From Candidatus Anammoxibacter sp. (GTDB lineage Bacteria; Planctomycetota; Brocadiia; Brocadiales; Anammoxibacteraceae), in assembly GCA_021777105.1 (NCBI GenBank), contig JAIQZQ010000122.1:863-32862 (forward strand): a stretch of 32,000 nucleotides of DNA, given 5' to 3'. This document shows, one piece after another, positions 3,599-25,523 of the stretch. The position numbers and the translations under genes were made by a program. The notes beneath the pieces were generated by a model that was not told the DNA's origin, searched no databases, and saw only the letters and a program-made list of their open reading frames with translations. Numbering within the stretch: position 1 is the stretch's first letter; the number at the start of each line of letters is the position of its first letter.

Positions 3599-3841
3599 TA
3601 AACGCTGTGTTCCCTATTTGTTTTAAAATTAATGCGCCCTGAAAACAGCCTGGACTTAAAAAATAAGCCTCTTTAGGTAAATTTCACTTATGTAAATTGA
3701 TATTACTAAATTATAACTACTGTTGCAATTTAGTCAACATTGTGAATAATAACAATCAGGGGCGACCATTTGATGTAAAAACAATTGCATTTTCCTGGAA
3801 AACGGGTTACGTTTTCATAAAAAGACGAGGAGTACGGAAAA

Positions 3842-8738: not shown

Positions 8739-8823
8739 TTGTAAATCCGTAAACACTAAATTTCAAAAAGGAACCACAGGCACGCTGATTTCTCAGATTT
8801 TCTAATCCGTTTGATTTTAACTT

Positions 8824-10374: not shown

Positions 10375-10454
10375 GGCCTTCCTTTACAGTGTTAAATTTC
10401 TATAACTTTAGCTCACTTTAGTCTGTTGCTTGTTGACGTTTTTTAACGAATTCC

Positions 10455-11492
10455 TTACGCCCACTCAAACAACATAGAGCCATACGTAAAACCCGCGCCG
10501 AATGTGTGGCACAGTATCAGATCGCCTTTCCGTATCTTCCCTGATTCATAATGTTCACAGATGCCCGTGGGGATGCCGGCGCTGCCCACGCTTCCATATT
10601 TATTAAGAGTGTATGGTATTTTTTCAAACGGATATCCAATGTGTTCGCAAAACTCCTTCACCATAGTCTTCGTTGTTTGGTGCGGCACAAAAAGGTCTAT
10701 ATCTTTTTGTGAAATATTATAAGCCCCGGCCCGGGCCAGAACATCATCCATACTCTTTTTAGATTCAAACGCGAGTTTTCTGGCGGCTTTGCCGTTTATT
10801 TTAGAAAACGGCCGCTTTATCTTTGCCATATCTTTGCCCGCAAAATACCCCTCCATTGAATTAAACTCTTCAGTAAAGACGGTTGGAAGTTGAATAGCGT
10901 TTGACGGGATTGTTCCGCAACTAAAGATCGGCGCGCATAATTTATGTTTTGACGAGCCGTTTTCATCCGCCCGCTCGACAATAGCCGCCCCCGCGGCGTC
11001 GCCGAATATAATATTAGAGCGATCATGAAAATTCATAATTCTGGAATGAGCTTCAGTTCCAACAATAAGGGCTTTTTTTGCCTGATTGGTTTGAATCATA
11101 GATACGGCGGTCCGCATTCCAAATATCCACCCTGAACAGCTTGCCATAATATCAAACGATGTGGCGTTTGAAGCATTTAGCTTTCCCTGGATCTTAGAGG
11201 CAGCGCTTGGTAAAATGTCATCCGGAGAGCTTGTTGCGCATATTATCAGATCCAAACTTTCTGGTTTATTGCTGCCTGTCCGGTCTAAAGCAATTAAAGA
11301 GGCCTTTACCGCCATGTCCGTGATTGACTGCCCGGCCTCTATCCTGCTGCGATCACAAACGCCTGAAGTTTCAATGATCCATTCAAGCCAATCGTCATCA
11401 ACGCTTAACAACTTTTTCCAGTCCTTATTGGAAATTCGGCGTTCGGGTATATATGAACCTATGCCGGTTATTTTTACATCGCTCATATTCAT
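10455..11492 (-). CDS. 3-oxoacyl-ACP synthase III-like (FabH/KAS III family)
   Basis: ITGIGSYIPERRISN at the N-terminus. The Cys-His-Asn triad contexts are present: MASCSGWIFG, VPHQTTK, LNKYGSVGSAGIP. GAGFTYGS lies at the C-terminus. It sits co-directionally 80 nt upstream of the GT4 gene. Confidence 0.85.
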   Translation of the reverse strand: MNMSDVKITGIGSYIPERRISNKDWKKLLSVDDDWLEWIIETSGVCDRSRIEAGQSITDMAVKASLIALDRTGSNKPESLDLIICATSSPDDILPSAASKIQGKLNASNATSFDIMASCSGWIFGMRTAVSMIQTNQAKKALIVGTEAHSRIMNFHDRSNIIFGDAAGAAIVERADENGSSKHKLCAPIFSCGTIPSNAIQLPTVFTEEFNSMEGYFAGKDMAKIKRPFSKINGKAARKLAFESKKSMDDVLARAGAYNISQKDIDLFVPHQTTKTMVKEFCEHIGYPFEKIPYTLNKYGSVGSAGIPTGICEHYESGKIRKGDLILCHTFGAGFTYGSMLFEWA

Positions 11493-11549
11493 AAAATTTT
11501 AGGAAAATTTTGTTTATCAATTTAAGTTAGTTAATTAAAATAACAGAGT

Positions 11550-12341
11550 TTGAGTTTTTTTCAACACAATTTCCGTTTAAAAGGAGGAATGCGCGCTTTG
11601 AAGATCTTATATGCGCTTTTGTTAAAGCTTTTGGAAATAGGTACATTTCTGCGTCTCTACTATACAGGCGTTATTGTTTATTACAAATTTTTAAACAGTT
11701 TTCGCCTTAAAGGCGAACGCGAATGCGAGCTGCTTTCAGAGTTTATAAGACCAGGCGATCTTGTTGTGGATATCGGCGCATGTTATGGATTGTACGCGTC
11801 AAGGATGGCCGGGTTGGTTGGCGGCAACGGTAAAGTGATTAGTTTTGAAGCCACGCCTACTACATTCAACTTCACTCAAAAGATTGTTTCAGAACCAAAT
11901 GTCGAATTGCATAATCTGGCGATAAGCGACAAACGAGGAAGCGTCAGGATAGCGCTGTTTATTGCTCCGGAATCTTGCAAGATAATCAGAGGCCTTAGCC
12001 GTATTGTGGATGAAAATGAGAACAGGGTAAAACATTTTGAGACGGTTAATTGCGCGCCGTTAGATGAGCTTTTAAATAATCGGGATAGGCCTGTTTCGTT
12101 TATAAAGTGCGATGTTGAAGGGCATGAAATTCCGGCTATAACCGGAGCTTTAAATATTATAAAACAGGACAAACCCGTTTTGCTTATTGAGTTGGCATTT
12201 GAAAATGTTGAACCCATGTCAAACATCCTTGAACCGCTGGGGTATGAAAAAAAGCAGATTACTCAGCACGGCACACTGTCTTCAAATAGGAAAGAGGTTA
12301 TTTTAACTCCAAATTATTTTTTTATCCCAAACACAGATTAA
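11550..12341 (+). CDS. FkbM-family SAM-dependent methyltransferase
   Basis: VVDIGACYGLYASRMAGLVGGNGKVISFEATPTTF (SAM motif I) and FIKCDVEGHEIPAI are typical FkbM signatures. The start is uncertain: TTG 11550 has no SD, and ATG 11589 is only 1 nt from GGAGG. Confidence 0.75.
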   Translation: MSFFQHNFRLKGGMRALKILYALLLKLLEIGTFLRLYYTGVIVYYKFLNSFRLKGERECELLSEFIRPGDLVVDIGACYGLYASRMAGLVGGNGKVISFEATPTTFNFTQKIVSEPNVELHNLAISDKRGSVRIALFIAPESCKIIRGLSRIVDENENRVKHFETVNCAPLDELLNNRDRPVSFIKCDVEGHEIPAITGALNIIKQDKPVLLIELAFENVEPMSNILEPLGYEKKQITQHGTLSSNRKEVILTPNYFFIPNTD

Positions 12342-13025: not shown

Positions 13026-13409
13026 CTAAAAGTTATTTACGTTAATAGGCAATTCCCTGATTCTAACACGAAACTCTTCAAATATAATTATTGAACATTT
13101 TAATAAATATTCCTTAATCCCATCCAGCCGTTTATCCAAGAGATCTTTTATCTGGAAAACTTCCAGATTTTCAAGCCTACACGTTATTACCGAAGGTTTT
13201 GACAAATTTCTTAACGCAATAATAGCTCCAAAGTCCAAATCCATGGTTAATATGATATAGTCATTCTTATTTGCGTAATCAACAATCTCATAGTCTTCCG
13301 CATCTTTCATGCCGATATCAAATATTCTTACAGCTTCATAACCTGACTCGCATAAAAACGCAACTGTTTTTGGCGAAATCGGCATATCGGCAAGGAATTT
13401 TAAAGTCAT
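13026..13409 (-). CDS. DUF5615 (PIN-like / Mut7-C-like) putative toxin
   Basis: KFLADMPISPKTVAFLCESGYEAVRIFDIGMKDAEDYEIVDYANKNDYIILTMDLDFG is the DUF5615 pattern. It overlaps the upstream DUF433 gene by 4 nt. Confidence 0.8.
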   Translation of the reverse strand: MTLKFLADMPISPKTVAFLCESGYEAVRIFDIGMKDAEDYEIVDYANKNDYIILTMDLDFGAIIALRNLSKPSVITCRLENLEVFQIKDLLDKRLDGIKEYLLKCSIIIFEEFRVRIRELPINVNNF

Positions 13410-13639
13410 TTCTGTCCTATCAAAGGAAATGTTTTCTCCGAAGCCATCCAGGCCGCAAATTCCAATGATTGTTTTATGTCTTCTTTTTCCAATTCCGGAT
13501 AATTGGAAATTATATCTTCAACTGCTTTGCCGGTTGACACAAGTTTTATAATTAATGAAACAGGCATCCGCATGCCTCTGATACACGGTTGCCCCTGAAA
13601 AACATTAGGATCAACTGTAATCCTGTCTAATTTATGCAT
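13406..13639 (-). CDS. DUF433 putative antitoxin
   Basis: ITVDPNVFQGQPCIRGMRMPVSLIIKLVSTGKAVEDIISNYPELEKEDIKQSLEFAA is the canonical DUF433 signature (GKP.I.GTR..V..I). It is paired with DUF5615. Confidence 0.8.
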   Translation of the reverse strand: MHKLDRITVDPNVFQGQPCIRGMRMPVSLIIKLVSTGKAVEDIISNYPELEKEDIKQSLEFAAWMASEKTFPLIGQK

Positions 13640-13788
13640 TGTCTATTCCCGCGTATATATTTATAACAAATATTATGTTCTAATCACGAAAAACACACTT
13701 TAATACAACTCGCTATAATGTACGCTTTGCCTAAAATATTGTCAAACTGTTTATTGCCTCCAAATTTGGGCAAAACCCATGGACAGGC

Positions 13789-13810
13789 CTTAACAGGCTG
13801 TCCGAGAATA
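13789..13810 (+). repeat. copy 2 of the 22-nt exact repeat CTTAACAGGCTGTCCGAGAATA
   Basis: Identical to 752-773. In this copy only, GGACAG (13781-13786) can pair with CTGTCC (13798-13803). Confidence 0.8.
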
Positions 13811-13827
13811 TAAAAATACCAAACCAT

Positions 13828-14241
13828 TTAAATTTTCAATAAAATATCAAATCCTGCTTGTTCAAAGTGATGGTCGGTTGTAAAAATTTCAGTTATGCCG
13901 TTTTTCTCTGCAATTATCATACTAATACAATCAACCAAGCTCCAATCCTTATCTGACATTTTCTTAAATCGATCCCAACCAAGCGTCATCAAATTATCGT
14001 CAATATAAATGCAATCCCATTTTTTTGATTGGTTTATAACTTCCGTAAGTTTGATTGCCGTATACCGCTTTTGTGATTGACTAAAATAGCCGGCTAATTC
14101 TAAAATGACTGCATTTGTCGTCACAAATTCGCTTTGAGATGTTTTTAATTCATCCCTTACTTCCAAAGCCTTTTCGTGGAATTTATCTTTTTTCTCGCCC
14201 ATTGCAATAAGCGCAGCAGTATCGACAAAAACTTTTTTCAT
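13828..14241 (-). CDS. vapC: PIN-domain ribonuclease toxin (VapC family)
   Basis: VFVDTAALIA (first acidic residue), TTNAVILEL, SLVDCISMIIAEKNGITEIFTTDHHFEQAGF. The PIN acidic-residue layout is intact. Confidence 0.85.
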   Translation of the reverse strand: MKKVFVDTAALIAMGEKKDKFHEKALEVRDELKTSQSEFVTTNAVILELAGYFSQSQKRYTAIKLTEVINQSKKWDCIYIDDNLMTLGWDRFKKMSDKDWSLVDCISMIIAEKNGITEIFTTDHHFEQAGFDILLKI

Positions 14242-14480
14242 TTTTTTGGCATTCCATAAATATATTGATCATGATTGACCGAACCATCTGTTCTTCCGGT
14301 ATCAACTGCTATTGCCTCTATATCCATGGCGTCCCAGGGATCTATATTTGAAGTTCCTGCTCCCTTTTGTTCTTTTTTAATCGTTTCAGCTTCTTTTTTT
14401 AGAGCGGCTTCTATTTCCGTTATTTTTTGCTTCAAAATTTCTTTTGGCAAGCTGTCAGGCACGTCAATAGTAATTTGCAT
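14238..14480 (-). CDS. putative cognate antitoxin of the PIN toxin (family not recognised)
   Basis: The gene encodes 80 aa and overlaps the vapC start by 4 nt (ATGA-type coupling). A strong SD AAGGAGG lies 8 nt upstream of the ATG. Confidence 0.6.
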   Translation of the reverse strand: MQITIDVPDSLPKEILKQKITEIEAALKKEAETIKKEQKGAGTSNIDPWDAMDIEAIAVDTGRTDGSVNHDQYIYGMPKK

Positions 14481-14649
14481 TGAAATATCCTCCTTTATAA
14501 AAAATTATAGTTCGGCTATCTTTTCTCTATCAAATCTTTAAACAGGGGCTCCTTCTGTGGCCAAACCTGATCTATTGGCAAAACTTATAGATATTAAAGA
14601 ACTTACGACACGCGAATTTGCCAAAGGGAACCAGGAGGCAGGTTTGTTT

Positions 14650-14952
14650 CTATTCTTTACTTTTGTAATAGCGTTTAAAAGCAGTTCGGAATTTATCATT
14701 CGGCTCAGGCGGAGCTAACAGCGCTTCATAAAAGGCATCCCAATCCAATTCTGAAAGCTCAATAGTTTTGCGTTCAGCAAGAATTTTATCAGCAGCGGCA
14801 ATTGAATTTGAAAGGATAAATTCACTAACAGTTTTATTAGTATAATCTGCCGCAAGTTGTAGCTTTCTTTTTGTGTAACCGTCTGTCCTTATTTGAACAC
14901 GTTCTTTTTTTGTGACGTTTGTATGTGGCATAAAATATCCGCCGTTTTTCAA
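14650..14952 (-). CDS. DUF1778 (TacA-like, RHH) antitoxin without an adjacent GNAT toxin
   Basis: KKERVQIRTDGYTKRKLQLAADYTNKTVSEFILSNSIAAADKILAE...LSELDWDAFYEALLAPPEPNDKFRTAFKRY is the DUF1778 signature. The true start may be Met8 (14931). Only about 170 nt separate its stop from the next gene, so there is no room for a GNAT gene. Confidence 0.8.
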   Translation of the reverse strand: MKNGGYFMPHTNVTKKERVQIRTDGYTKRKLQLAADYTNKTVSEFILSNSIAAADKILAERKTIELSELDWDAFYEALLAPPEPNDKFRTAFKRYYKSKE

Positions 14953-15188
14953 TCGCTCTCGTTTTCCGTTATCATCTCCAGATTCACTTTTGAATCAACG
15001 CTTATATGTTGTAATGAACTCATGGCTTTATTTAAAAGGCTATTTTTCTCGATATCAGTTAACCCTTTTCCTTTTAACAGGTCAACTATTTCTATAAATC
15101 TGGAACATTCTTCACTTAGTTCGCTAAATGAAGCGAGCGTTGTTTCTTCGTCAATCCTCATTTCATCACTAACCGTATTAACGTTCAT
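14949..15188 (-). CDS. hypothetical acidic 79-aa protein, upstream of and coupled to the DUF1778 gene
   Basis: SD GGAAAGGGGG lies 6 nt upstream of the ATG. Its stop overlaps the DUF1778 start by 4 nt. No family recognised. Confidence 0.45.
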   Translation of the reverse strand: MNVNTVSDEMRIDEETTLASFSELSEECSRFIEIVDLLKGKGLTDIEKNSLLNKAMSSLQHISVDSKVNLEMITENESD

Positions 15189-15399
15189 TTGGCGCCCCCT
15201 TTCCTTTAATTTTTCTGTAAAGTCTTTTTTCCGATTTTTTTATTTCCATTCTAAAGATTTCAACTTCACCTAACCATTTTTTTATTAAACCCTCGTAAGG
15301 ATTTCCTTTTTTGCGTTCTTTATCAATTTTTAATAAATGCTCTCTAATGTTTGCTTTAAAACTTTCAATCTGGTCTCTATAGCTTTGCTTATTTGTCAT
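15178..15399 (-). CDS. hypothetical basic 73-aa protein, first gene of the three-gene unit
   Basis: An uninterrupted ORF in very AT-rich DNA that overlaps the next ORF by 11 nt. No obvious SD. No family recognised. Confidence 0.35.
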   Translation of the reverse strand: MTNKQSYRDQIESFKANIREHLLKIDKERKKGNPYEGLIKKWLGEVEIFRMEIKKSEKRLYRKIKGKGAPNER

Positions 15400-15616
15400 A
15401 TATTTAACATATGTAAAACCGTATTTTGTTTATTAAAGTTATTATTACTTTTAAACTAATAACCGTCAATTGAAATTTGAAAGTAAAAAATAATGCGCTT
15501 TCACAGCGAGGTTTACACACCTGCGCTGAAGCTGTTCCTTCTTTACAAGAAAATTTACAGGCAGGTTAATTATTCTAAAAAAAATGCCACTTTGTGCGTT
15601 ATTATACGCGTTTATA

Positions 15617-15648
15617 CACACCCCTAAATCCCCTCTTATTGGAGGGGA
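15617..15648. repeat. C-rich/G-rich hairpin element (CCCCTAA + TCCCCTC-N6-GAGGGGA)
   Basis: TCCCCTC (15629-15635) pairs with GAGGGGA (15642-15648). It shares the CCCCTAA lead-in and overall architecture with the element at 30633-30667. Confidence 0.5.
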
Positions 15649-15855
15649 CTTTTGATTTAATTTTTGGTTTTATTCCCTTGTAAAAAGAGTAGTGGCGGAT
15701 TAAAAGCAGGCGGGCCGGGCAAATCATTGTAAAGGGTAACAAGGAAATTTAATTATTGATTTTAAAAGAAATATTGAAATCCAAGTTTGAAACAGCTATT
15801 ATTTAGGCTTATAAATTTAGCAACGTGATGATTGTAAAACTGCATACAATTTATG

Positions 15856-15927
15856 GCCCGTGTGGCTCAATGGTAGAGCACGGCATTCGTAATGCTGGGA
15901 TTGCGGGTTCGATTCCCGCTGCGGGCT
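15856..15927 (+). tRNA. tRNA-Thr (anticodon CGU), CCA not encoded
   Basis: Hand-folded cloverleaf. Acceptor stem: GCCCGUG/UGCGGGC, with tandem U-G and G-U pairs at 6:67 and 7:66. D arm: GCUC-AAUGGUA-GAGC. Anticodon arm: CGGCA-UUCGUAA-UGCUG. Variable loop: GGAUU. T arm: GCGGG-UUCGAUU-CCCGC. Discriminator: U. Confidence 0.9.
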
Positions 15928-15941
15928 TTTACTTACTATAA

Positions 15942-15966
15942 TAGCGGCGCGCCGCGCGCGCCGCTA
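15942..15966 (+). other. perfect GC-rich hairpin 14 nt after the tRNA (11-bp stem, 3-nt loop)
   Basis: TAGCGGCGCGC-CGC-GCGCGCCGCTA. No U-run follows, so it may be a processing or termination structure for the tRNA transcript. Confidence 0.6.
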
Positions 15967-16005
15967 CTGCATCGGTTTCCATTTCCAGATTTTCAATTTT
16001 TCAGC

Positions 16006-16035
16006 CTGATTTCAACATTTTCAAGCTTTTATAAT
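16006..16035 (+). promoter_or_regulatory. promoter candidate: perfect TATAAT preceded by phased T-tracts
   Basis: TATAAT lies at 16030-16035 and the -35 is weak (CTGATT/TGATTT). Upstream, TTTC/TTTTC tracts recur about every 8-11 nt from 15976 to 16030, which suggests a curved UP-like region. Confidence 0.4.
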
Positions 16036-16045
16036 ATAAATAACG

Positions 16046-16097
16046 GCGCAGGCATCCTGCCTGTGATAAATTAAAACACAGGCAAGGATGCCTGTGC
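16046..16097 (+). repeat. long imperfect inverted repeat (about 19 bp per arm) in the leader of the lipid cluster
   Basis: GCGCAGGCATCCTGCCTGTG (16046-16065), an 11-nt AT loop, then CACAGGCAAGGATGCCTGTGC (16077-16097). Confidence 0.65.
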
Positions 16098-16137
16098 CAC
16101 TAAACCAATCCTTTATGCCATTTAAAACATTTGTCAG

Positions 16138-16161
16138 GGCGGCTTTTGCCGCCTTTTTTTT
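16138..16161 (+). terminator. intrinsic terminator 16 nt upstream of the radical SAM start codon
   Basis: GGCGGC (16138-16143), loop TTTT, GCCGCC (16148-16153), then a T8 run (16154-16161). The ATG is at 16177. Confidence 0.75.
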
Positions 16162-16176
16162 ATTAATTAAGTAGTA

Positions 16177-17784
16177 ATGATAAATTTAAAAGAGAACGTT
16201 TTTAAAAACAGAAGCCCAAAAGTCGCGCTTGTTGAGCATCCGCGCCCTCGCGACGCAAAGCGGGAGGAGGACGTTGTCAACTCTCCCCTTTCGGCTTGCC
16301 TTATGACTGGATATGCGGCGTCTGTTCTTAAAGAAAAGGGCATTGAGGTTGAAATAGTTGACGCCAACCTTTTGGGCCGGTCAATAGATGAAACTATAGA
16401 GCATCTTTCCGGCGCCGGCTACGCGTTGATTTGCGTTCGGCTTGTTTATTTGTGGGAGCGGACGGAAGACATATTAAATATGATAGGTGAGTTGCGCAAA
16501 CGCGGCGTTAAGGCGCATATAAATCTTTACGGTCATTATGCGACTTTTGCGCGGGATGAGCTGCTTGACCGTTTTCCATTTGTTGATTCCGTCGCGGTTG
16601 GCGAGCCTGAGTTCACATTGCTTGAGTTGGCGGAAAGGTTGGTCGAAGCTGAACAGGAACAAGGCATTTCTAATATCAGTGGACTGGCAGTGAGAGACAA
16701 GCAGGTTGCGTTTAAACCTAGGGAGTTGATAAGCAACCTAGATATGTTGCCGTTTCCTGATCGCCCAAATATTGAAATTGAGAGGGCAAAAGGGACTACA
16801 ACCTATATCCTCGGCAGCAGGGGGTGCTACAATAATTGCGGGTTTTGTTATTTAAATCCTTTTTATGGGGACGAGGCGGACTGGCGGGGAAGAAGCGCGC
16901 AAAATATTTTTGATGAGATAAAGCAGTTATACGGCCAGCGGGAATGCCGCAGTTTCTACTTTGCTGACGCCAACTTCTTCGGCAAGGGCAGGGCCGGCAA
17001 GGAGCGCGTAAAAGAGCTGGCCAACCTTATTATCGAGAGCGGTATAAAAATTATCTTCGGGTTGGAGTGCCGGGCAAACGATGTGGACGCTGAAATTATA
17101 GGGTTGCTTAAAAAGGCCGGGCTTGACAACATTTTCATCGGCATTGAAAGCGGCGATCAGGCCATCCTGAACTCATTCGGCAAAAACACGTCGGTTGAAG
17201 TAAACAAGAAGGCTATAAATATAATAAGGAAGTCAGGGGCAAGTCTTAATATGGGCTTTATCATGTTTGGCCGCAGCGCGAATATTGAGGGGATTAAACA
17301 GAATTTTAATTTCTTGCAGGATATGGGGCTTCTTGTTGAACCGTATACTACGGCTCACCTTTTGCACCACAGGCAATCTATTTTCCAGGGCACTCCTGAT
17401 TATGAAAAATTTATGGCGGAGTCTCAGGCCATTGATAATGGCGGAAGTTTGCCGTTTGGAAATTACGAGGCGTTGTTGGAACTGAATGATAAACGAACTG
17501 CGGTTATGGCGGATGTGGCGTTTAGTTTTTGCAGGAAAGCTTTATCAATTATTTCAGGCAACGGCAAAAACAACGAAGATGATCTATGCGGAAGCAAAAT
17601 AACCGGCGAATCTAAAGACGGCTATTTGGCTAAACTTAACGGACTGCTTATTGACCTTTTTAGCCGAACGTTGGATGGGATTGAAAAAGGCGATATTGAT
17701 CTTGACGATAATGGGGTAAATAGATTAAAAGAGGCGCATATAAATGAAATAGAGAGTTTTGATAAAAAGAATCGCTCAATTTAG
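16177..17784 (+). CDS. B12-binding-domain (class B) radical SAM enzyme, 535 aa
   Basis: The N-terminal region is Rossmann-like and cobalamin-domain-like (KVALVEHPRP...EVEIVDAN...ALICVRL...INLYGHYATF...VAVGEPE). The CxxxCxxC cluster motif is GCYNNCGFC: Cys217/221/224, codons 16825-16848. The only plausible start is the ATG at 16177. Confidence 0.9.
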   Translation: MINLKENVFKNRSPKVALVEHPRPRDAKREEDVVNSPLSACLMTGYAASVLKEKGIEVEIVDANLLGRSIDETIEHLSGAGYALICVRLVYLWERTEDILNMIGELRKRGVKAHINLYGHYATFARDELLDRFPFVDSVAVGEPEFTLLELAERLVEAEQEQGISNISGLAVRDKQVAFKPRELISNLDMLPFPDRPNIEIERAKGTTTYILGSRGCYNNCGFCYLNPFYGDEADWRGRSAQNIFDEIKQLYGQRECRSFYFADANFFGKGRAGKERVKELANLIIESGIKIIFGLECRANDVDAEIIGLLKKAGLDNIFIGIESGDQAILNSFGKNTSVEVNKKAINIIRKSGASLNMGFIMFGRSANIEGIKQNFNFLQDMGLLVEPYTTAHLLHHRQSIFQGTPDYEKFMAESQAIDNGGSLPFGNYEALLELNDKRTAVMADVAFSFCRKALSIISGNGKNNEDDLCGSKITGESKDGYLAKLNGLLIDLFSRTLDGIEKGDIDLDDNGVNRLKEAHINEIESFDKKNRSI

Positions 17785-17811
17785 TTTAATTATTTAAGGT
17801 TATATAAATTT

Positions 17812-18810
17812 ATGAACACAGCTCAATCACAATTTGATTATATTACGGAAATAAGCCTTGGGTATTGGAAATCGAGGACGTTAATAACGGCTGTGGAGTT
17901 GGGCGTGTTTACATGTTTGGCCAAAGGGAGCTGCAACGCGGCTGCGATTGCAAAGGCGGCAAAAAGCGACACAAGGGCAATGGAGATGTTGCTGAACGCG
18001 TTGGTTGGGCTGGAATTTCTCGGCAAAAAAGGGAATTTGTTTAAAAACAGGCCGATTGCAGATCAATATCTGGTTAAAGGCCGGCCTTTGTATCAGGGAA
18101 ACCGCATTCTTTTATCCAGAAACTTATGGGACAACTGGTCAAACCTGGACAAAGCTGTAAAAAGCGGCAAGCCGGTGGCTTTTAAAAACGCCGGCAAGAA
18201 ACCTGACGCAAAAAAGCGCAAAGTGTTTATAACGGCCATGCGCGATTTTGCGGTTTTTAAAAGCAAGGCAGTCGCCGCAAACCTAAACCTGGCCGGCCGT
18301 AACAAGCTTTTAGATTTGGGAGGAGGGCCGGGTTCGTATTCTATAGAATTTGTCAAAGCAAATCCTGAGCTTAATGCTGTAATATTTGATCTAAACGGAG
18401 TTGTGAAGCTGGCAAAAGGTTTTGTTAAGGAAGCGGGTTTAAGCAAAAGGATTAAGACTATTGCCGGAGAGTGTGTTAATGACGATTACGGAGACAATTT
18501 ATACGACGTTGTTTTTGTGTCAAATTTATTGCACATGTATGATGAGAAGATAAATCTGAATATTATAAATAAATGCTATAACGCGCTTGAAAAAGGGGGC
18601 ATGTTCATCGCCAGTGATTTTTTTATGGACACGTCAATGACAAAATCGCAATTTGCCGCCCTTTTTAGCCTGAACATGCTGACCGGCACGCATGGCGGGA
18701 GCAATTACAGCGTTAATGAAATAAAGGGGTGGTTGTCAAAGGCGGGTTTTAATAAATTAAAATCTGTTAAATATGATATGGACTCTTATTTGGTTATTGG
18801 CCATAAATAA
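17812..18810 (+). CDS. class I SAM-dependent O-methyltransferase, family-2 type (N-terminal dimerisation/wHTH domain; CrtF/ASMT-like)
   Basis: SLGYWKSRTLITAVELGVFTCLA forms the dimerisation domain. LLDLGGGPGSYSIEF is motif I. DVVFVSNLLHMYDE and GGMFIASDF are motifs II and III. The start is 27 nt after the radical SAM stop. Confidence 0.85.
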   Translation: MNTAQSQFDYITEISLGYWKSRTLITAVELGVFTCLAKGSCNAAAIAKAAKSDTRAMEMLLNALVGLEFLGKKGNLFKNRPIADQYLVKGRPLYQGNRILLSRNLWDNWSNLDKAVKSGKPVAFKNAGKKPDAKKRKVFITAMRDFAVFKSKAVAANLNLAGRNKLLDLGGGPGSYSIEFVKANPELNAVIFDLNGVVKLAKGFVKEAGLSKRIKTIAGECVNDDYGDNLYDVVFVSNLLHMYDEKINLNIINKCYNALEKGGMFIASDFFMDTSMTKSQFAALFSLNMLTGTHGGSNYSVNEIKGWLSKAGFNKLKSVKYDMDSYLVIGHK

Positions 18811-18902
18811 TGCGTTTTTGAAAAATAAGCAACATAAACAGACCGTAAAAATTTATCCTAAATGGCTATGTCGTTTAAATATAGAGGGGGTTAATATTAT
18901 TA

Positions 18903-18931
18903 TTGACAACTCAATTGCTCTCTGATATCAT
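18903..18931 (+). promoter_or_regulatory. sigma70-type promoter candidate upstream of the ACP gene
   Basis: TTGACA (18903-18908), an exactly 17-nt spacer, then TATCAT (18926-18931). A hairpin follows in the leader: GGCGTAA (18958-18964) with TTACGCC (18975-18981), then TTTT. Confidence 0.5.
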
Positions 18932-19045
18932 TATCCGATTAATGTTTTGCCTGCGTCGGCGTAACACATTGTTTTTACGCCTTTTAGCGGTAAAATTTAA
19001 AGGTTTAAAATAATAATTTAGGCACTTTTAAATGGAGGGGTTAAG

Positions 19046-19300
19046 TTGTATTCAGACGACACGGAAAGAGATGTCACAGCTATAGTCGCGGAAGTGACCG
19101 AGATGGACGAAGCCGAAATTTGGGAAAAAAAAGAAGCTGATTTTTTCAAAGATTTGGAAATAGATTCATTGTTGGCTTTGGAAATTTTGGCATTAATTGA
19201 AAAAAAGTTCAAGATTCAAGTACCTGAAGAGAAACTTGTAGATATTACATCACTTCAGCAGACAATTAATATGACTAAAGCAGTGTTAGAGGCAAAATAA
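19046..19300 (+). CDS. acyl carrier protein
   Basis: FKDLEIDSLLALEILALIE contains the D-S-L phosphopantetheine attachment motif (Ser41, codon 19166-19168). The start is TTG, with SD GGAGGGG 5 nt upstream. Confidence 0.85.
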   Translation: MYSDDTERDVTAIVAEVTEMDEAEIWEKKEADFFKDLEIDSLLALEILALIEKKFKIQVPEEKLVDITSLQQTINMTKAVLEAK

Positions 19301-19365
19301 TAATCAGGATAATTAAATTTTTATGCGCATGTATAAAACGGTAAACATTATAAAGGGTGTGCCAA

Positions 19366-19818
19366 ATGAGTTATGATGAGGTAAAACGCCTCTTGCCTCA
19401 ACGGAATCCTTTTATATTTGTTGATAAAATTGTTGAGTTTGAAGAGAATAAGCGGATTGTTTGTATAAAAAATGTATCAGGCAATGAGCCTTATTTTGTG
19501 GGCCATTTTCCTGACTTTGAGATAATGCCGGGCGTTTTGATGTTGGAGGCAATGGCCCAGGCTTCAATAATTTTGTTCAAGAAGAGTTCTACCGGCATGG
19601 ATGATGGGGACGGCAAGGTGTTCTTGCTGGCTTCTGTTAAAAACGCGCGTTTTTTAAAACCGGTTTTTCCCGGCGATCAATTGGCTCTGGAAATTAATGT
19701 TGAAAAAATAGTGGCAAGCGGAGCCATTGTTCAGGGGGTGGCCAAAGTAGGAGACAAAACCGTCGCAAAAGCGGCTCTAACATTCGGCACGGCTGAAAAA
19801 AGCGCGTTATCACAATAA
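19366..19818 (+). CDS. fabZ: 3-hydroxyacyl-ACP dehydratase, FabZ family
   Basis: LLPQRNPFIFVDKIVEFEENKRIVCIKNVSGNEPYFVGHFPDFEIMPGVLMLEAMAQ is a near-textbook FabZ hot-dog signature and includes the catalytic His and Glu contexts. I prefer ATG 19366 (MSYDE...) over the tracked GTG 19357. Confidence 0.9.
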   Translation: MSYDEVKRLLPQRNPFIFVDKIVEFEENKRIVCIKNVSGNEPYFVGHFPDFEIMPGVLMLEAMAQASIILFKKSSTGMDDGDGKVFLLASVKNARFLKPVFPGDQLALEINVEKIVASGAIVQGVAKVGDKTVAKAALTFGTAEKSALSQ

Positions 19819-19854
19819 AATCATATCAAAACACAAATTTAATAATATAGAATG

Positions 19855-19877
19855 CCCCGATAATTCGGGGTTTCTTT
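19855..19877 (+). terminator. terminator-like hairpin between fabZ and the KS gene
   Basis: CCCCGA (19855-19860), loop TAAT, TCGGGG (19865-19870), then TTTCTTT. A TATAAT hexamer lies downstream at 19910-19915. Confidence 0.45.
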
Positions 19878-19931
19878 ATTATTACGGCAACGTTAAACTT
19901 CATAGTTTTTATAATCCCGTTCTATTTTATC

Positions 19932-21152
19932 ATGAAAAAACGAATAGTAATTACAGGCATGGGGGTGGTTTCTCCTGTTGGATGCGGAAAAGACGTCTTT
20001 TGGGACGCTATTACTTCCGGCAAGTCAGGAATTGACGAGGTGAAAGGTTTTGACACTTCAGCGTTCAGGGTGCATCGGGGTTGCGAAGTTAAAGACTTCA
20101 ATTATAAAGATTACATACCAAACGGAACCGGCAGAGAAATCGGCAAGGGTTCTGAGTTTGCCGTTGCGGCGGCCAAACTTGCGCTGGATGATTCAGGCCT
20201 AAATATTGAAGAACTTGATAAAGAGAGGATCGGCGTTTCAGTCGGCACTACGGCGGGCGAAATTCAAGTATTGGAAAAGATCGACGATACCAGATTCAAA
20301 AATGGCGAGGATGCCGTTGATCCTGAACAATTCTTAAAACATCCTTGCAACAGCATACCTGCAAACATAGCTATAGAGTTTGGATTTAAAGGCCCGAACA
20401 CAATAATTCCCACTGCGTGCGCCGCCGGTAATTACGCGGTAGGTTACGCGTGCGATTTGATATCAATGGGCCGGGCGGATTATATGGTCGCGGGTGGAGC
20501 CGATCCATTTTCAAGAGTGGCGTATGTTGGATTTGGCAGGTTAAACGCCATCGCGCCTGAGATTTGTCAACCATTTGCGAAAGACCGCAAAGGGATGATG
20601 ATAGGCGAGGGAGCCGGCATAGTAGTTCTGGAGTCGCTTGAAAATGCGCGAAAAAGAAACGCAGAAATTTACGCCGAGATTATCGGGAGCGGACTTAGCT
20701 GCGACGGTTATCACATTACAATTCCTCATCCGGAAGGCATCGGGGTTATCGCGGCAATGAAAAAGGCTATAAAAGACGCCAATATAAAACCGGAAGATAT
20801 TCAATATATAAGTGCTCATGGAACCGGGACTATGGCAAACGACAAAGCCGAAACCGTATCAGTTAAAAAGGTTTTTGGCGAACACGCAAATAAATTAATG
20901 ATAAGCTCCATTAAGTCTATGATCGGGCACACCATGGGAGCGGCAAGCGCAATAGAGACGGTGGCTTGCGCAATGGCTGTAAAAAACAATATTGTTCCAC
21001 CGACCACAAATTATTCCGCAAAAGATCCCGAGTGCGATCTTGATGTTGTTCCTAATGAAAAACGGGAAACGGAAGTAAACATTGTCCTCAACAACGCCTA
21101 TGCGTTTGGAGGCAATAATAGTTGTTTGGTTATTAAAAAATTTGCCGAGTAA
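19932..21152 (+). CDS. beta-ketoacyl-ACP synthase, FabF/KAS II-like (active KS subunit)
   Basis: The Cys-His-His triad contexts are intact: PTACAAG (Cys163, codon 20418-20420), SAHGTGT and GHTMGAAS. Confidence 0.9.
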
Positions 21153-21155
21153 AAA

Positions 21156-22388
21156 ATGGAAAAACAAATAGTTGTCACAGGCATAGGAATTATTTCCGCT
21201 TTAGGCGATGATAAAACTCAATTTTGGGGTAATCTGACAAAAGGAGTCTCCGGCATAAAACCCGTTACCCTTTTCGATGTCTCATCGTTTAAAAATAAAT
21301 TAGCGGGCGAAATAACGGAATTTGATCCTAAAGCGTATTTAGGCAAAAAGGGTATCAGACATATAGACCGCACGTCATTGTTAATTTCGTCAGCCGCAAA
21401 ATTGGCTTTGCAGGACGCGAATGTGAACGACGACACATACGGCTGCGAAGAAAAAGGCATAGTTTTCGGATCAACATACGGCAGCATCGACAGCATAAGC
21501 GAATTTGATATGGAAGCCCTTAAAGAGGGCCCGAATTATGTAAACCCAATGGCTTTTCCAAACACGGTCTTAAACGCCCCGGCAAGCAGAGCGTCTATTT
21601 TTTGCAACGCTACAGGGTTAAACTCTACAATTTCAAACGGCGTTACCAGCTCTATCGACTCAATAATTTACGCCTCGGATTTCCTTAAAATGAGCAGAGT
21701 AAAGGCTGTTTTAACCGGAGGCGTCTTTGGTTTGACCTATGGTATATACCTTGGAACTTCTCATGCAAAGCTTCTCTCCGGCAGCGATGGGAATCCAAAT
21801 GAAATCTCAGCTCCGTTTGATAAAAGACGAAACGGTTTTGTGTTGGGCGAGGGAGCCGCTGTTATGTTGCTTGAAAATATTGATGACGCAAAAAAAAGAA
21901 ACGCGACTATTTACGGCGAAATAAAAGGGTACGGAACGTCTTTTAGCCCTAACAAGGTAATCGGCAAAGAGAGCAATGTTGATGACGGCAAACGCGCTAT
22001 TACGATTGCGTTAAATGAGGCGTCGTTGACTGCGGATAATATATCGTTTATATCGGCAAACGCCAACTCCAGCATTGATGGAGATATAAGGGAGTCGCGG
22101 ATTATTAAAGAAGTGTTTGGAGATCAAACTAAAAATACGCCTGTAACCGCCGTTAAATCTATGATCGGCGAGTGCCTTGACGCATCAGGAGCAATGCAGA
22201 CAATTTCAAGCTTATTGGCGATAAATAACGGGGCTGTACCTCCAACAATAAATTGTGAAGAGCTCGATGAAAAGTGCGGTTTGGAGTGCGTTCCTGACGA
22301 ATGCAGGGAAATGGCTGTTGAAAACGTGTTGATTAACTCTTTTTCTGATATTGGGAACGCGTCTTCGTTAATTGTTTCTAAATTTTAA
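21156..22388 (+). CDS. KS-like partner lacking the catalytic triad (chain-length-factor / KS-beta-like)
   Basis: It aligns to the preceding KS without gaps across the active-site segment. Cys163 becomes Val163 (GTT, 21642-21644). SAHGTGT becomes [15 protein letters not shown] becomes GECLDASG. The start is 3 nt after the KS stop. Confidence 0.85.
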   Translation: MEKQIVVTGIGIISALGDDKTQFWGNLTKGVSGIKPVTLFDVSSFKNKLAGEITEFDPKAYLGKKGIRHIDRTSLLISSAAKLALQDANVNDDTYGCEEKGIVFGSTYGSIDSISEFDMEALKEGPNYVNPMAFPNTVLNAPASRASIFCNATGLNSTISNGVTSSIDSIIYASDFLKMSRVKAVLTGGVFGLTYGIYLGTSHAKLLSGSDGNPNEISAPFDKRRNGFVLGEGAAVMLLENIDDAKKRNATIYGEIKGYGTSFSPNKVIGKESNVDDGKRAITIALNEASLTADNISFISANANSSIDGDIRESRIIKEVFGDQTKNTPVTAVKSMIGECLDASGAMQTISSLLAINNGAVPPTINCEELDEKCGLECVPDECREMAVENVLINSFSDIGNASSLIVSKF

Positions 22389-22448
22389 TGATAAAAGTTT
22401 AGCGGAAATCAAAACGCTGCACATTCCGCTTGGTTTTAATATTTTGCA

Positions 22449-23900
22449 ATGTATGAGTTTGGTGTAAAAGGTTTTTACGATAAGTCCAGGTTAAAGTCGG
22501 AATATGACGCGATAGTTATAGGGGCCGGCATCGGCGGATTGGTTTGCGGCGCTTTTTTAGCAAAAGCAGGCAAAAAAGTATTGATTGCCGAGCAGCATAG
22601 CATGCCGGGTGGTTATTGCACTTCTTTTAAAAGAAAAGGATTTATCTTTGACTCTGCGGTGCATCACATTGGCGGATGCGGAAGGTGGAGCATTGTCGGA
22701 CGATGTTTTAGCGAGCTTGACATTGACCTTGATTTCCACCATCTTGACCCGATGGACAACATTGTTTTTCCGTCAAGAAGCGTTGAAATCCCCGCGGATA
22801 TCGATGAATATTCAGAAAACTTGCAAAATCAATTTCCTGCTGAAAAGGAAAATATAGCAAAGTTTTTTAAAGAGTTCACCAAACTCTATTGGTCTATTAT
22901 AAACAATAAGGCTCACAGCGCCTTAATAGAGAAATACAACGGAGTTACGTTTAGCGAAACGCTTGACAACTTTTTTGCGGATCCACAATTAAAATCTATT
23001 CTTGGCGGACAATGGGGTTATTTAGGGTCGCTGCCGAACGAAGTGTCAACTATAGGCATGTGCCAGATGTTGATTAACTATTTAAAAGACGGCGCGTATT
23101 TCCCGGTAGGCGGATCGCAAAAATTTGCAAACGCCATACTAAAGCGGTTTATTGACCTTGGAGGTGAAATTATTCTATCATCCATGGTTGAGAAAATATT
23201 GTTGGACGGCGATAAAGCCGCCGGCATTGCGTTAAAAGACGGTCAAGAAGTTTTAGCCGGCACGGTTATTTCAAACGTGGACGCGAAACAAACTTTTCAT
23301 GAGCTTTTACCTACAAAGGTAAACGGCAATTTTGCCGCAAAGCTAAACGGCATGCAGGAAAGCGCGTCTTTCTTTCTGCTTTATCTTGGAGTTGACTCTG
23401 AGATTGATTTGAGCAAACTAAAACGCGGTTTCTATTATCCGTCGGACGGACCGTTTACAAAAGACAACTGGAAATATATTTCAGTGCCCACTAAAGTCGA
23501 CCAGACTTTGGCGCCTGACAATAAACAGATAATTTTTAGCCTGGTAGCGCTGGACAAAGAGTATGATGATATTACGGATTGGGATGATTTAAAGAAAAAG
23601 CTTACCGAGTCCACAATTGACTATCTGTCTGAATTTGCTCCGGGTTTGCGGGATCATATAGAGGTTGTTGACGCGGCTACCCCAAAGACTCTTAAACGGT
23701 ACACTCTTAATTCAAAAGGCGCGCCATACGGCTGGGCCGTAACTAACGACCAGACAGGAGCAAACAGGCTACAGCCGACAACTCCGTTTAAAGGCCTGTA
23801 CCTCGCCGGGCACTGGACAAATCCGGGCCCAGGCATCGCCTCGGTGGTGTCATCAGGCTGGCGCGTGGCAAACATAATTTTAAAAGAAGAAAAACAGTAA
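22449..23900 (+). CDS. FAD-dependent desaturase/oxidoreductase, phytoene-desaturase (CrtI/CrtD) family
   Basis: YDAIVIGAGIGGLVCGAFLAKAGKKVLIAEQHSMPGGYCTSF is the N-terminal dinucleotide-binding motif of this family. The C-terminal GLYLAGHWTNPGPGI motif is also present. Confidence 0.85.
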   Translation: MYEFGVKGFYDKSRLKSEYDAIVIGAGIGGLVCGAFLAKAGKKVLIAEQHSMPGGYCTSFKRKGFIFDSAVHHIGGCGRWSIVGRCFSELDIDLDFHHLDPMDNIVFPSRSVEIPADIDEYSENLQNQFPAEKENIAKFFKEFTKLYWSIINNKAHSALIEKYNGVTFSETLDNFFADPQLKSILGGQWGYLGSLPNEVSTIGMCQMLINYLKDGAYFPVGGSQKFANAILKRFIDLGGEIILSSMVEKILLDGDKAAGIALKDGQEVLAGTVISNVDAKQTFHELLPTKVNGNFAAKLNGMQESASFFLLYLGVDSEIDLSKLKRGFYYPSDGPFTKDNWKYISVPTKVDQTLAPDNKQIIFSLVALDKEYDDITDWDDLKKKLTESTIDYLSEFAPGLRDHIEVVDAATPKTLKRYTLNSKGAPYGWAVTNDQTGANRLQPTTPFKGLYLAGHWTNPGPGIASVVSSGWRVANIILKEEKQ

Positions 23901-23981
23901 CCGGATTTTAGCGCTTCATATATACAAGCGCCAACATCTGGTTACTAACATTAATAATATTTTTTTAGGGAGAAAAATAAT

Positions 23982-25448
23982 ATGAGAAAGATGATGTTGG
24001 TAAACCCGCATCCACCGGGACGACATGGAGAGGAAAGCATTACGGTTATTGTGCAGATGCCTTTAAATTTGGCTTATATTGCCGCATTGACACCCGGAGA
24101 CTGGGAATTTGATGTTATTGATGAAAACATGGAACTTGCCCTTGACGAGACAGAGACTAATACAACATTTGACGGCTTTGACCTTGTTTGTATAACAGCA
24201 TTAACACACCAGGCTGCAAGGGCTTATAAAATTGCAGAGGCGTGCAAGAAAAAAGGCATGACTACGATAATGGGCGGAATACACGCGTCTGTGGTTACGG
24301 ACGAAGCCTTGCAATATCTTGACTGTGTTGTTACCGGCGAGGCTGAAAATATTTGGGCAACTGTTATTAAAGATTTTGAAGAGGGTAATTTAAAGAAACT
24401 TTATGATGGCGGGCTCCCAGACCTTAGCGTGTTAAAAAAAGTTTACCCTAACAGGGAGTTGATGAGGAAAAAATATGATTATAAATTCTCTTCAATTATT
24501 ACCACAAAAGGTTGCCCTAACAGATGCGAATTTTGCAGTGTGCCGACTTTCCAGGGCGGAAAATTCAGGGAAAGGCCTTATGAAGATGTTCTCGACGAGA
24601 TGGAAGCGACTGATTATAAAGGGTTAATGTTTGCCGAAGACAACTTCTATGGTCACGGAAAACGCTCTGCTGAAAGAGCGCGAAATTTGTTTCAGGGCAT
24701 GGTTGATAGAAAAGTCAATAAAGATTGGCTCGGATTTACCGCATTGAATATTAATAGCGACGCCGAAGTTCTTAGATTAATGGCCGAAAGCGGCAACTTT
24801 GGAATGCTTATCGGAGTTGAATCTACAAACGAAGAAGTGCTGGCAAAGATGAATAAACGCGTCAACCTTAAACTCGGCGTTGACAGCTATTACGAAAGCG
24901 TTGACCGTATTCACCAGGCCGGGCTTGTTGTTTGGGGCTCAATGGTATTTGGAGCCGACGGCGACGGCAAGGACTCATTTGCCAGAATGGCTGATTTTAT
25001 TCTGGATAACAATATTGATATTTTAACTTACGGTATAAGCACCCCTTTCCCAAAAACGCCTTTATTTGAACGCCTTGATGGAGAAAAACGAATTTTCCGT
25101 AAAAACTTCCCTAATGACTGGAAGTATTATGACACAGCTAACGTGATTAGCAGATTTGTTAGCCTTAGCCTTGAAGAGTTTATTGAAGGCATGCAACTTG
25201 TATATGACAAAGTTTACGCGGGAACTATGTTGCGTGAAAGATTCAGAAATACAATTAAAAGGACTCATAACCCTAGAAATGCAATGTTTGCTTTCAGAGT
25301 AGGCTCTGACTGGAAACAGGTGTTTGAGCAGGTGCTTGATGGTTTAAGAGAACTTTATGATTCAGGCGATTACTATAAAGACTGGTATACAAGTAAATCC
25401 ATGGTTGTTGAAAAACAGGGTTTAGAGACTGTAGCCACAGCTTATTAA
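23982..25448 (+). CDS. B12-binding-domain (class B) radical SAM enzyme, 488 aa (second, divergent paralogue)
   Basis: The N-terminal domain is cobalamin-binding-like (LVCITALTHQAARAYKIAEACKKKGMTTIMGGIHAS...VVTGEAE). The CxxxCxxC motif is GCPNRCEFC: Cys178/182/185, codons 24513-24536. SD GGGAG is upstream. Confidence 0.9.
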   Translation: MRKMMLVNPHPPGRHGEESITVIVQMPLNLAYIAALTPGDWEFDVIDENMELALDETETNTTFDGFDLVCITALTHQAARAYKIAEACKKKGMTTIMGGIHASVVTDEALQYLDCVVTGEAENIWATVIKDFEEGNLKKLYDGGLPDLSVLKKVYPNRELMRKKYDYKFSSIITTKGCPNRCEFCSVPTFQGGKFRERPYEDVLDEMEATDYKGLMFAEDNFYGHGKRSAERARNLFQGMVDRKVNKDWLGFTALNINSDAEVLRLMAESGNFGMLIGVESTNEEVLAKMNKRVNLKLGVDSYYESVDRIHQAGLVVWGSMVFGADGDGKDSFARMADFILDNNIDILTYGISTPFPKTPLFERLDGEKRIFRKNFPNDWKYYDTANVISRFVSLSLEEFIEGMQLVYDKVYAGTMLRERFRNTIKRTHNPRNAMFAFRVGSDWKQVFEQVLDGLRELYDSGDYYKDWYTSKSMVVEKQGLETVATAY

Positions 25449-25484: not shown

Positions 25485-25523
25485 AAAAGCTCTGATGTTC
25501 AAAAGGACATCAGAGCTTTTTTT
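25485..25523. terminator. bidirectional intrinsic terminator between the convergent radical SAM and GGDEF-like genes
   Basis: AGCTCTGATGT (25488-25498) pairs with ACATCAGAGCT (25507-25517), an 11-bp perfect stem. An A-run lies 5' and a T6-7 run lies 3'. Confidence 0.8.

Follow-up and report, generated by a model that had tools for sequence, protein, structure and literature searches.

The 32,000-nt stretch of contig JAIQZQ010000122.1 analysed here (hereafter the window; position 1 is its first letter, and window coordinates are used throughout) carries a lipid locus of eight open reading frames (ORFs) at 16177-25448, all on the plus strand and placed exactly as in an initial annotation made from the letters alone (Table 1). 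Pfam and NCBIfam matched the domain assignments of that annotation for 8/8 genes, and the motifs GCYNNCGFC, GCPNRCEFC and DSL were all present in the translations. Alignment likewise bore out a first ketosynthase (KS) with an intact Cys-His-His triad (C163/H296/H333) and a partner in which all three residues are replaced (V163/N302/E339). The list of missing functions also held, as Pfam detected no ketoreductase, enoyl reductase, acyltransferase, thioesterase or transporter domain within 16.1-25.5 kb; no hydrazine synthase (hzs) genes occur in the 32-kb window. The eight genes had been taken as a single unit. We regard it as quite probable that they are instead two juxtaposed units, adjoining in an Anammoxibacter-like family: the six genes known as 'Cluster I' (genes 3-8) and a separate pair, related to the bza (cobamide lower-ligand) genes, that consists of a radical SAM protein (rSAM1) and an O-methyltransferase (OMT). 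This is because Kuenenia separates the two, the pair lies mostly elsewhere in Brocadiales, and the Cluster I promoter is conserved as far as Kuenenia.

Table 1 Genes and transcription signals of the lipid locus, in window coordinates
Feature	Position	Strand	Description
Intrinsic-terminator-like hairpin + T-run	16136..16165	+	8 pairs, 6 GC, then T8; -15.1 kcal/mol, z = -3.6
rSAM1	16177..17784	+	535 aa, class-B-type radical SAM, CxxxCxxC = C217/C221/C224; Pfam Radical_SAM + weak B12-binding
OMT	17812..18810	+	332 aa, family-2 SAM-dependent O-methyltransferase; Pfam Methyltransf_2 + N-terminal Dimerisation
Predicted sigma-70-type promoter of the six-gene unit	18903..18931	+	TTGACA, 17 nt, TG-n-TATCAT
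amxACP	19046..19300	+	Pfam PP-binding; DSL phosphopantetheine site; orthologue of kuste3603
amxFabZ	19357..19818	+	Pfam FabA/FabZ; 3-hydroxyacyl-ACP dehydratase; orthologue of kuste3604
amxFabF2	19932..21152	+	ketoacyl-synt N + C domains; active ketosynthase; orthologue of kuste3605
amxFabFmut	21156..22388	+	ketoacyl-synt N + C domains; triad-less, chain-length-factor-like; orthologue of kuste3606
Phytoene-desaturase-like FAD enzyme ('PDH')	22449..23900	+	Pfam Amino_oxidase, NAD_binding_8; CrtI family; orthologue of kuste3607
rSAM2	23982..25448	+	B12-binding + Radical_SAM, C178/C182/C185; orthologue of kuste3608
Bidirectional intrinsic terminator	25485..25523		16-bp stem, -23.4 kcal/mol, z = -7.6; A-run 5', U-run 3'

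Cluster I corresponds to kuste3603-3608, named in the literature amxACP, amxFabZ, amxFabF2, amxFabFmut, PDH and cobalamin radical SAM, and is the field's main candidate for the biosynthesis of ladderanes (fused cyclobutane chains), a problem open for ~20 years. The literature cited in the initial annotation proved accurate: the locus was proposed for ladderanes by Rattray et al. (2009) from comparative genomics, with synteny in Desulfotalea psychrophila, and Javidpour et al. (2016) obtained no ladderanes in E. coli. The latter authors tested 34 genes, from clusters kuste2802-2805, 3335-3352 and 3603-3608; with kuste3603-3608, 6/6 genes were transcribed and 6/6 proteins detected, and neither ladderanes nor any new fatty acid was found. 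According to published work, all ladderane producers known so far retain the cluster, and its expression is high.

Genes 3-8 (19046-25448) reproduce, gene for gene and all on one strand, the six-gene row of Kuenenia stuttgartiensis CP049055 (L003 5187-11461; L numbers designate the loci compared), with one-to-one identities to kuste3603-3608 of 74% (ACP, acyl carrier protein), 70% (FabZ), 72% (FabF2), 63% (FabFmut), 57% (PDH) and 72% (rSAM2). The homology and synteny check proposed in the initial annotation for its resemblance to the Kuenenia locus came out in favour of an orthologue, at 57-74% identity. Searches of the PDB pointed the same way. The best matches of amxACP were 7qv0_D, 7auf and 9s5i_E (116-123 bits vs 36 for canonical ACPs), amxFabZ matched 8ayd and 7qv0_A (202-216 bits vs 116 for canonical FabZ), amxFabF2 matched 9s5h_B with 656 bits (next FabF, 352) and amxFabFmut matched 9s5h_C with 561 bits (next match, 254). 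For rSAM2, the PDB search returned no close solved structure.

The V/N/E pattern of amxFabFmut is shared with kuste3606 and agrees with the published hallmark of Cluster I, a second FabF homologue without Cys-His-His (Cys replaced by Val/Thr; His by Asn/Glu/Cys). The triad columns were located with an E. coli FabF sequence, and kuste3605 and kuste3606 stood in the same alignment, so that the conclusion is independent of the E. coli sequence. The window amxFabZ has the tunnel Ile, also present in Kuenenia, where canonical FabZ and the engineered Ile-to-Gly mutant 8ayc carry Gly. It has Val at the equivalent of position 115 (hallmark Val/Ile) and differs from Kuenenia at the equivalent of position 96, where it carries Leu, non-basic, instead of the reported Ser/Thr. 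Judged from their sequences, genes 3-8 are an orthologue of Kuenenia Cluster I, beyond mere similarity, and every testable sequence-level hallmark of that cluster is present, bar this one FabZ position. The FabZ encoded in the non-anammox contig L090 was likewise observed to have the tunnel Ile.

PDH scored 171.7 bits on the NCBIfam crtI_fam model, under its cutoff of 238.1, and its orthologue kuste3607 could not replace CrtI in the published lycopene assay, so that we rejected a CrtI-type phytoene desaturase. The class B features of rSAM2 are clear (B12-binding 44.2 bits, cutoff 32.1; Radical_SAM 61.1 bits). Neither radical SAM belongs to NCBIfam TIGR04072 (rSAM_ladder_B12), where rSAM2 reached 75.0 and rSAM1 52.8 bits against a cutoff of 360; this family models different, BzaD-like radical SAM proteins, since a genuine BzaD scores 276 bits on it. 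The best named matches of rSAM2 were from Candidatus (Ca.) Anammoxibacter (80%), Ca. Brocadia (75%) and Ca. Kuenenia (72-73%). Together with the Cluster I orthology, these relatives indicate a Brocadiales host of the anammox type, nearest Ca. Anammoxibacter, in line with the anammox planctomycete entertained in the initial annotation; published Anammoxibacteraceae genomes are reported to carry hzsABC. Contigs matching the window were found in the sequencing runs SRR15505514 and SRR15505515; the sample behind them also contains a contig identical to GCA_021777075.1 (JAIQZP01), whose accession adjoins that of the Oslofjord-tunnel Anammoxibacter genome OFTM134 (JAIQZO01), and the window probably derives from one of these Anammoxibacteraceae genomes. 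Cluster I itself is already known and the host is of the expected kind: the window leaves the ladderane picture unchanged and adds one orthologue from a recently described anammox family.

What the window does define is the boundary of the cluster. The spacer of 235 nt between the OMT and ACP genes contains a predicted promoter (TTGACA-17-TGATATCAT) with 11/12 consensus matches and an extended -10 element, the best promoter match in the region. The promoter block ATTATTGACA...CTGATATCAT upstream of the ACP gene is conserved in the window, L086, L088, L006 and Kuenenia L003. Because it is kept in Kuenenia, where the rSAM1/OMT pair is not upstream, Cluster I has its own conserved start whatever lies before it, and its true start is at this promoter, conserved from the Anammoxibacter-like family to Kuenenia. 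Genes within Cluster I are 3-113 nt apart, and the strong bidirectional terminator noted after rSAM2, which folding confirmed, separates the cluster from a convergent GGDEF gene. The six-gene unit, with its own promoter and strong terminator, is thereby placed at 18.9-25.5 kb and the pair at 16.2-18.8 kb. The amxFabZ gene probably starts at the ATG at 19366 and not at the listed ORF start (19357), because the gene as called on contigs L001 and L002, which are 100% identical, encodes 150 aa. A GC-rich hairpin with a U-rich tract was also observed between the FabZ and amxFabF2 genes (19854-19871; -15.5 kcal/mol, z = -4.8), a junction whose spacers are longer in relatives (90-320 nt); it may be an internal attenuator setting the ratio of ACP/FabZ to KS.

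Upstream of the pair, the hairpin and T-run that the initial annotation called a leader terminator do exist, 12 nt before rSAM1 and 208 nt downstream of tRNA-Thr(CGU) (15855-15928). They need not act as a leader and may simply end the tRNA-Thr transcript; Rfam searches for a riboswitch or leader before rSAM1 (gathering score over the whole window; E <= 1 over 15400-16250) returned tRNA-Thr alone. No recognisable promoter or Shine-Dalgarno sequence was found for rSAM1, whose start lies 12 nt after the terminator T-run, and the pair is possibly expressed by read-through from a tRNA promoter at ~15774-15802 or from a leaderless mRNA.

The distribution of the pair was established by scanning an alignment of rSAM1 homologues against one genome per species, which gave at least 80 loci; counts below refer to the loci listed. 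Across 13 rSAM1 homologues, the alignment has 120 invariant columns. The window protein scored 65.7 bits on Radical_SAM and 25.2 on B12-binding, below the cutoff of 32.1, and its homologues carry B12-binding in precomputed Pfam annotations. In 38/51 Brocadiales loci the gene right after the rSAM1 orthologue encodes an OMT, and in 34/52 (L006 included) a ThiC-like gene precedes it, a frequent row being bioA-bioD-thiC-like-rSAM-OMT. The pair was found in every anammox family sampled. Nevertheless, of the 32 Brocadiales loci whose downstream flank extends for 8.5 kb or more, 28 have no Cluster I behind the pair; Cluster I follows it only in the window, L006 (Anammoxibacter OFTM134), L086 and L088/L089. 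In Kuenenia CP049055 the pair is absent beside Cluster I, where the next gene upstream encodes isocitrate dehydrogenase and runs on the opposite strand, and the Kuenenia counterpart of the pair sits at a separate locus, beside bioA-bioD-thiC. The four lineages with all eight genes have rSAM1 proteins that are mutually 51-64% identical and upstream flanks that differ, with the ThiC-like gene kept upstream in just one of them; there is none anywhere in the window. Hence the single eight-gene unit was not upheld, and rSAM1 and OMT are not to be counted in the cluster without evidence.

Two other explanations of the pair were tried and rejected. One was that rSAM1 is one of the four radical SAM proteins of Rattray et al. 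(kuste2803, 3342, 3343 and 3608): it is about 21-23% identical to kuste3608/rSAM2, and the rSAM1 of Kuenenia sp. L050 has no ketosynthase gene within 10 kb, whereas kuste2803, 3342 and 3343 sit among FabF genes. The other was a change of function after the pair joined Cluster I. Its 51-56% identity to the nearest relatives is typical of a fast-evolving pair (60% between Kuenenia and Jettenia), and in both trees the branching agrees with that of the families, the eight-gene clade having no branch out of the ordinary.

Some loci depart from the common arrangement of the pair. Eight Ca. Brocadia loci (L007, L012, L019, L021, L022, L033, L037 and L038) have an rSAM1 homologue without an O-methyltransferase within 10 kb, and some of them also lack the upstream ThiC-like gene, which points either to a split of the pair in this genus or to paralogy. 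The basal 'Ca. Brocadiia bacterium JP1' has its closest rSAM2 homologue (54%; L091 9001-10425) on its own next to genes of the futalosine (menaquinone) pathway, with no Cluster I genes within 9 kb, and the same contig has the ThiC-like-rSAM1-OMT trio (L051).

Outside anammox bacteria, the nearest relatives of rSAM1 (35-44% identity) are found in Firmicute bza operons of the type cobalamin riboswitch-bzaA-bzaB-(cobS-cobT)-bzaC-bzaD-rSAM; the BzaD model, cobT, cobS and the cobalamin riboswitch confirmed the identity of the reference operons. Desulfoscipio geothermicus, for instance, has a cobalamin riboswitch followed by bzaA, bzaB, cobS, cobT, a bzaC-like methyltransferase gene, BzaD (695 bits on NCBIfam, cutoff 450) and the rSAM1 homologue, which is the remaining B12 radical SAM gene and is BzaE by position. 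Neomoorella stamsii (L071 5523-11509) has the shorter row cobalamin riboswitch-bzaA-bzaB-bzaC-rSAM, the last in the BzaE position, with no bzaD or cobT in the row. The window rSAM1 is 37% identical to the Neomoorella protein over 521 aa (E = 6e-100), and OMT is 31% identical to its BzaC over 347 aa (E = 2e-39) and 30-31% to the methyltransferase part of BzaC. Loci of Nitrospirota and Thermodesulfobacteriota (L069, L077 and L082) also contain a trio of ThiC-like protein, B12 radical SAM and family-2 OMT.

The radical SAM phylogeny called for in the initial annotation, carried out as neighbour-joining (NJ) trees, placed all anammox rSAM1 proteins as sisters of the BzaE-position proteins, the window rSAM1 being ~21% identical to BzaD and rSAM2. 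Anammox OMTs were sisters of BzaC, and the OMT tree mirrored that of rSAM1. As in the anaerobic bza operon (bzaA-bzaB/bzaF-cobT-bzaC-bzaD-bzaE), the pair follows a ThiC/BzaF-like gene in most Brocadiales. The dedicated hidden Markov models (HMMs) of Shelton 2018 (supplementary file 9) list the ThiC-like proteins of Brocadia and Jettenia as bzaF hits. However, rSAM comes before OMT in anammox bacteria, opposite to the Firmicute arrangement. We give roughly an even chance to genes 1-2 being a BzaE-like/BzaC-like pair of a reduced benzimidazole (cobamide lower-ligand) pathway, as their sequence relationships suggest. The initial annotation had both cobalamin radical SAM proteins act on the acyl chain, which does not fit the grouping of rSAM1 and OMT with BzaE-position and BzaC proteins.

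If the pair does work in this way, OMT would O-methylate 5-hydroxybenzimidazole and rSAM1 would then carry out a BzaE-type radical step, together setting the cobamide lower ligand; the BzaE reaction itself is described as enigmatic in the literature. We observed that the anammox gene set appears reduced like that of Neomoorella stamsii (no bzaD). As a speculation, reduced sets might yield 5-methylbenzimidazole if BzaE-type enzymes swap methoxy for methyl. Homologues of bioA and bioD were also observed near the trio in many Brocadiales and near true bza operons in two Firmicutes (L050 5983-12715; L067 743-11506; L076 9998-16177). In the literature searched we found no discussion of the anammox-wide ThiC-like/radical SAM/methyltransferase trio, which is joined to Cluster I in one family. 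The anammox trio of ThiC/BzaF-like protein, B12 radical SAM and OMT probably sets the cobamide lower ligand, which is relevant to reconstituting a cobalamin-dependent radical SAM step in a foreign host.

As for the six-gene unit, its biochemistry comes from Kuenenia, Brocadia and Scalindua orthologues. Dietl et al. (2023) found amxFabZ to favour chains of <=C8 and to be active solely on amxACP; the Scalindua FabZ orthologue rejects substrates on canonical ACP. A 2026 preprint (bioRxiv 10.64898/2026.05.19.726425) describes amxFabF2 and amxFabFmut as a KS/chain-length-factor-like heterodimer that decarboxylates malonyl-amxACP and favours C6-C8 substrates. The replaced triad of the 'KS-like partner' of the initial annotation was therefore right, although that description is out of date now that the partner has been shown to be chain-length-factor-like. 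A long, polyunsaturated acyl-ACP, the product then proposed, is not favoured given the preference of amxFabZ and the amxFabF proteins for C6-C8 chains. We infer that the KS/KS' pair also forms a heterodimer here, because the two proteins match the two chains of the crystallised 9s5h (656 and 561 bits) and amxFabFmut starts 3 nt past the stop of amxFabF2.

As in the KS/chain-length factor (CLF) pairs of type II polyketide synthases (PKS), such as actinorhodin ActA/ActB and ishigamide Iga11/Iga12, the gene of a triad-less paralogue comes after that of an active ketosynthase, and a crystal structure exists of the orthologous anammox heterodimer, which decarboxylates malonyl-ACP. However, both window proteins are nearer to FabF than to PKS ketosynthases and the cluster has no cyclase or aromatase. 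CLFs typically carry Gln where the CLF-like subunit of the window carries Val. With canonical type II fatty acid synthase (FAS-II; AcpP, FabZ and FabF), the locus shares the folds and catalytic residues of ACP, FabZ and the first ketosynthase, but it has no FabG, FabI or FabD, and the NCBIfam equivalog scores are below cutoff (fabF 460 vs 494 bits; acyl_carrier 47 vs 70 bits).

By orthology, the six-gene unit encodes a private carrier-protein line. If it works like its orthologues, the amxFabF2/amxFabFmut heterodimer would decarboxylate malonyl-amxACP to prime synthesis and extend short chains, and amxFabZ would dehydrate 3-hydroxyacyl-amxACP up to ~C8. Ketoreduction, enoyl reduction and malonyl transfer would be borrowed from FabG, FabI and FabD of the housekeeping FAS-II. 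The flavoprotein would then add unsaturation and the B12 radical SAM protein would form C-C bonds on the amxACP-bound chain, a consensus of the field that is unproven in any organism; a 2026 review lists three radical SAM mechanisms for ring formation, all of them unproven.

Several observations weigh against this picture of a ladderane cluster adjoined by a cobamide pair. As regards Cluster I, no experiment in any organism ties it to ladderanes, E. coli with kuste3603-3608 made nothing new, and six-gene cores in the same order exist in high-GC non-anammox genomes. As regards the separation of the two units, the pair stays joined to Cluster I in four diverged lineages despite their differing upstream flanks, and no terminator was found between the OMT and ACP genes (235-nt spacer), so that read-through into Cluster I is possible. 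As regards the pair, its identity to bza proteins is modest (rSAM1 35-42%, OMT ~30%), the anammox OMT does not have the C-terminal DUF2284-like part of Firmicute BzaC, and no bzaD, cobT or cobS lies near the pairs at the anammox loci examined. The Rfam cobalamin riboswitch is absent in the window, L050, L006, L020 and L029, and present in L071 and L076. The ThiC-like neighbour passes ordinary ThiC cutoffs and sits beside bioA-bioD; in the window, which has no such gene, the bzaF/bzaA/bzaB adjacency is missing altogether. A PDB search with an anammox ThiC-like protein returned ThiC structures alone and offered no BzaF entry for comparison.

The alternative that survives best concerns the product of Cluster I, which could be another short or modified acyl chain and not the rings, either the C6-C8 linear part of ladderanes or a product shared with non-anammox bacteria. 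The authors of the amxFab work have put forward the short linear portion of ladderane lipids as the product, as would suit the <=C8 preference of amxFabZ and the amxFabF heterodimer, and the failure of heterologous expression agrees with it. 'Ladderane' biosynthetic gene cluster (BGC) calls by antiSMASH have, moreover, already been reported in many non-anammox phyla, and we found the full ACP-FabZ-KS-KS'-desaturase-B12 rSAM order, with a triad-less KS', in non-anammox contigs, namely L090 4476-10476 (labelled Acidobacteria), L093 4338-14838 (Planctomycetota) and L094 3101-19437. Going by their sequences, these cores, from organisms not known to make ladderanes, are hard to square with the claim that only ladderane producers have the cluster. 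However, their GC content is 57-66%, and they usually have genes beyond the core, among them a second radical SAM, additional KS pairs and a ketoreductase; they are 33-58% identical to the window proteins, and the anammox orthologues form a tight group (57-93%) well apart from them. In addition, the cluster is reported in all known producers, and a plain short chain needs neither a B12 radical SAM nor a desaturase. We consider a non-ring product unlikely but not remote.

It seems somewhat less plausible, and rather improbable, that the pair has its role in a different pathway, for some other cofactor or small molecule (thiamine-, biotin- or quinone-related methylation), with the ThiC-like neighbour as an ordinary thiamine enzyme. 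On the ThiC model (cutoff 410) the ThiC-like proteins of anammox bacteria reach 599-602 bits, against 555-560 on that of BzaB, under its cutoff of 700, bioA and bioD lie just upstream, and the sources annotate OMT variously as UbiE-like or naphthoate O-methyltransferase; the lack of cobalamin riboswitch, cobT, cobS and bzaD at the anammox loci examined would also be explained. On the other side, the trio recurs in Nitrospirota and Thermodesulfobacteriota and, in Firmicutes, its counterparts lie inside unmistakable bza operons, the dedicated HMMs place the Brocadia and Jettenia proteins under bzaF, and Rfam found no thiamine pyrophosphate (TPP) riboswitch in L050, L006, L020 or L029 either.

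Least favoured, and very unlikely in our opinion, is one eight-gene pathway in which rSAM1 and OMT act on amxACP-bound intermediates with the desaturase and rSAM2 as the missing part of ladderane synthesis. The eight-gene order of the four lineages, the open OMT/ACP junction, the finding of both the pair and Cluster I throughout the anammox families sampled and the failure of kuste3603-3608 alone in E. coli would all suit it, but the pair lacks Cluster I behind it in most loci and is at a different locus in Kuenenia, the Cluster I promoter is conserved with or without the pair, the closest non-anammox homologues are under cobalamin-riboswitch control in bza operons, and nothing in the trees points to faster evolution of the eight-gene clade, as a changed function might have left. 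With two units as the preferred reading, the place of the pair beside the operon of a cobalamin-dependent enzyme in one family may be coincidence or co-regulation. A functional tie of the pair to Cluster I, be it as a missing ladderane component acting on amxACP intermediates or as the maker of a benzimidazolyl cobamide required by rSAM2, is highly doubtful; its cobamide form could possibly draw on a bzaF, bzaC-like and bzaE-like set without bzaD. Either tie, if true, would explain the lack of product from kuste3603-3608 alone in E. coli and would add two untried genes to reconstitution attempts.

The surroundings of the locus showed some further features. Three toxin-antitoxin-like pairs (DUF5615/DUF433; PIN + small ORF; TacA-like antitoxin + small ORFs) occur on the minus strand within 13026-16165, followed by the tRNA-Thr(CGU) gene, a GC palindrome (~15944-15966) and a long hairpin (16041-16102). 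L006 has a ThiC/BzaF-like gene in place of this toxin-antitoxin/tRNA stretch, which looks like an insertion or rearrangement hot spot. Farther upstream, 5260-12341 encodes a NodU-like carbamoyltransferase, two glycosyltransferases, a FabH-type ketosynthase III and an FkbM methyltransferase, possibly a glycolipid or polysaccharide modification cluster. The FabH homologue (10455-11492, minus strand; 257 bits vs a cutoff of 249) lies 4.7 kb upstream of the lipid locus, from which the toxin-antitoxin genes separate it.

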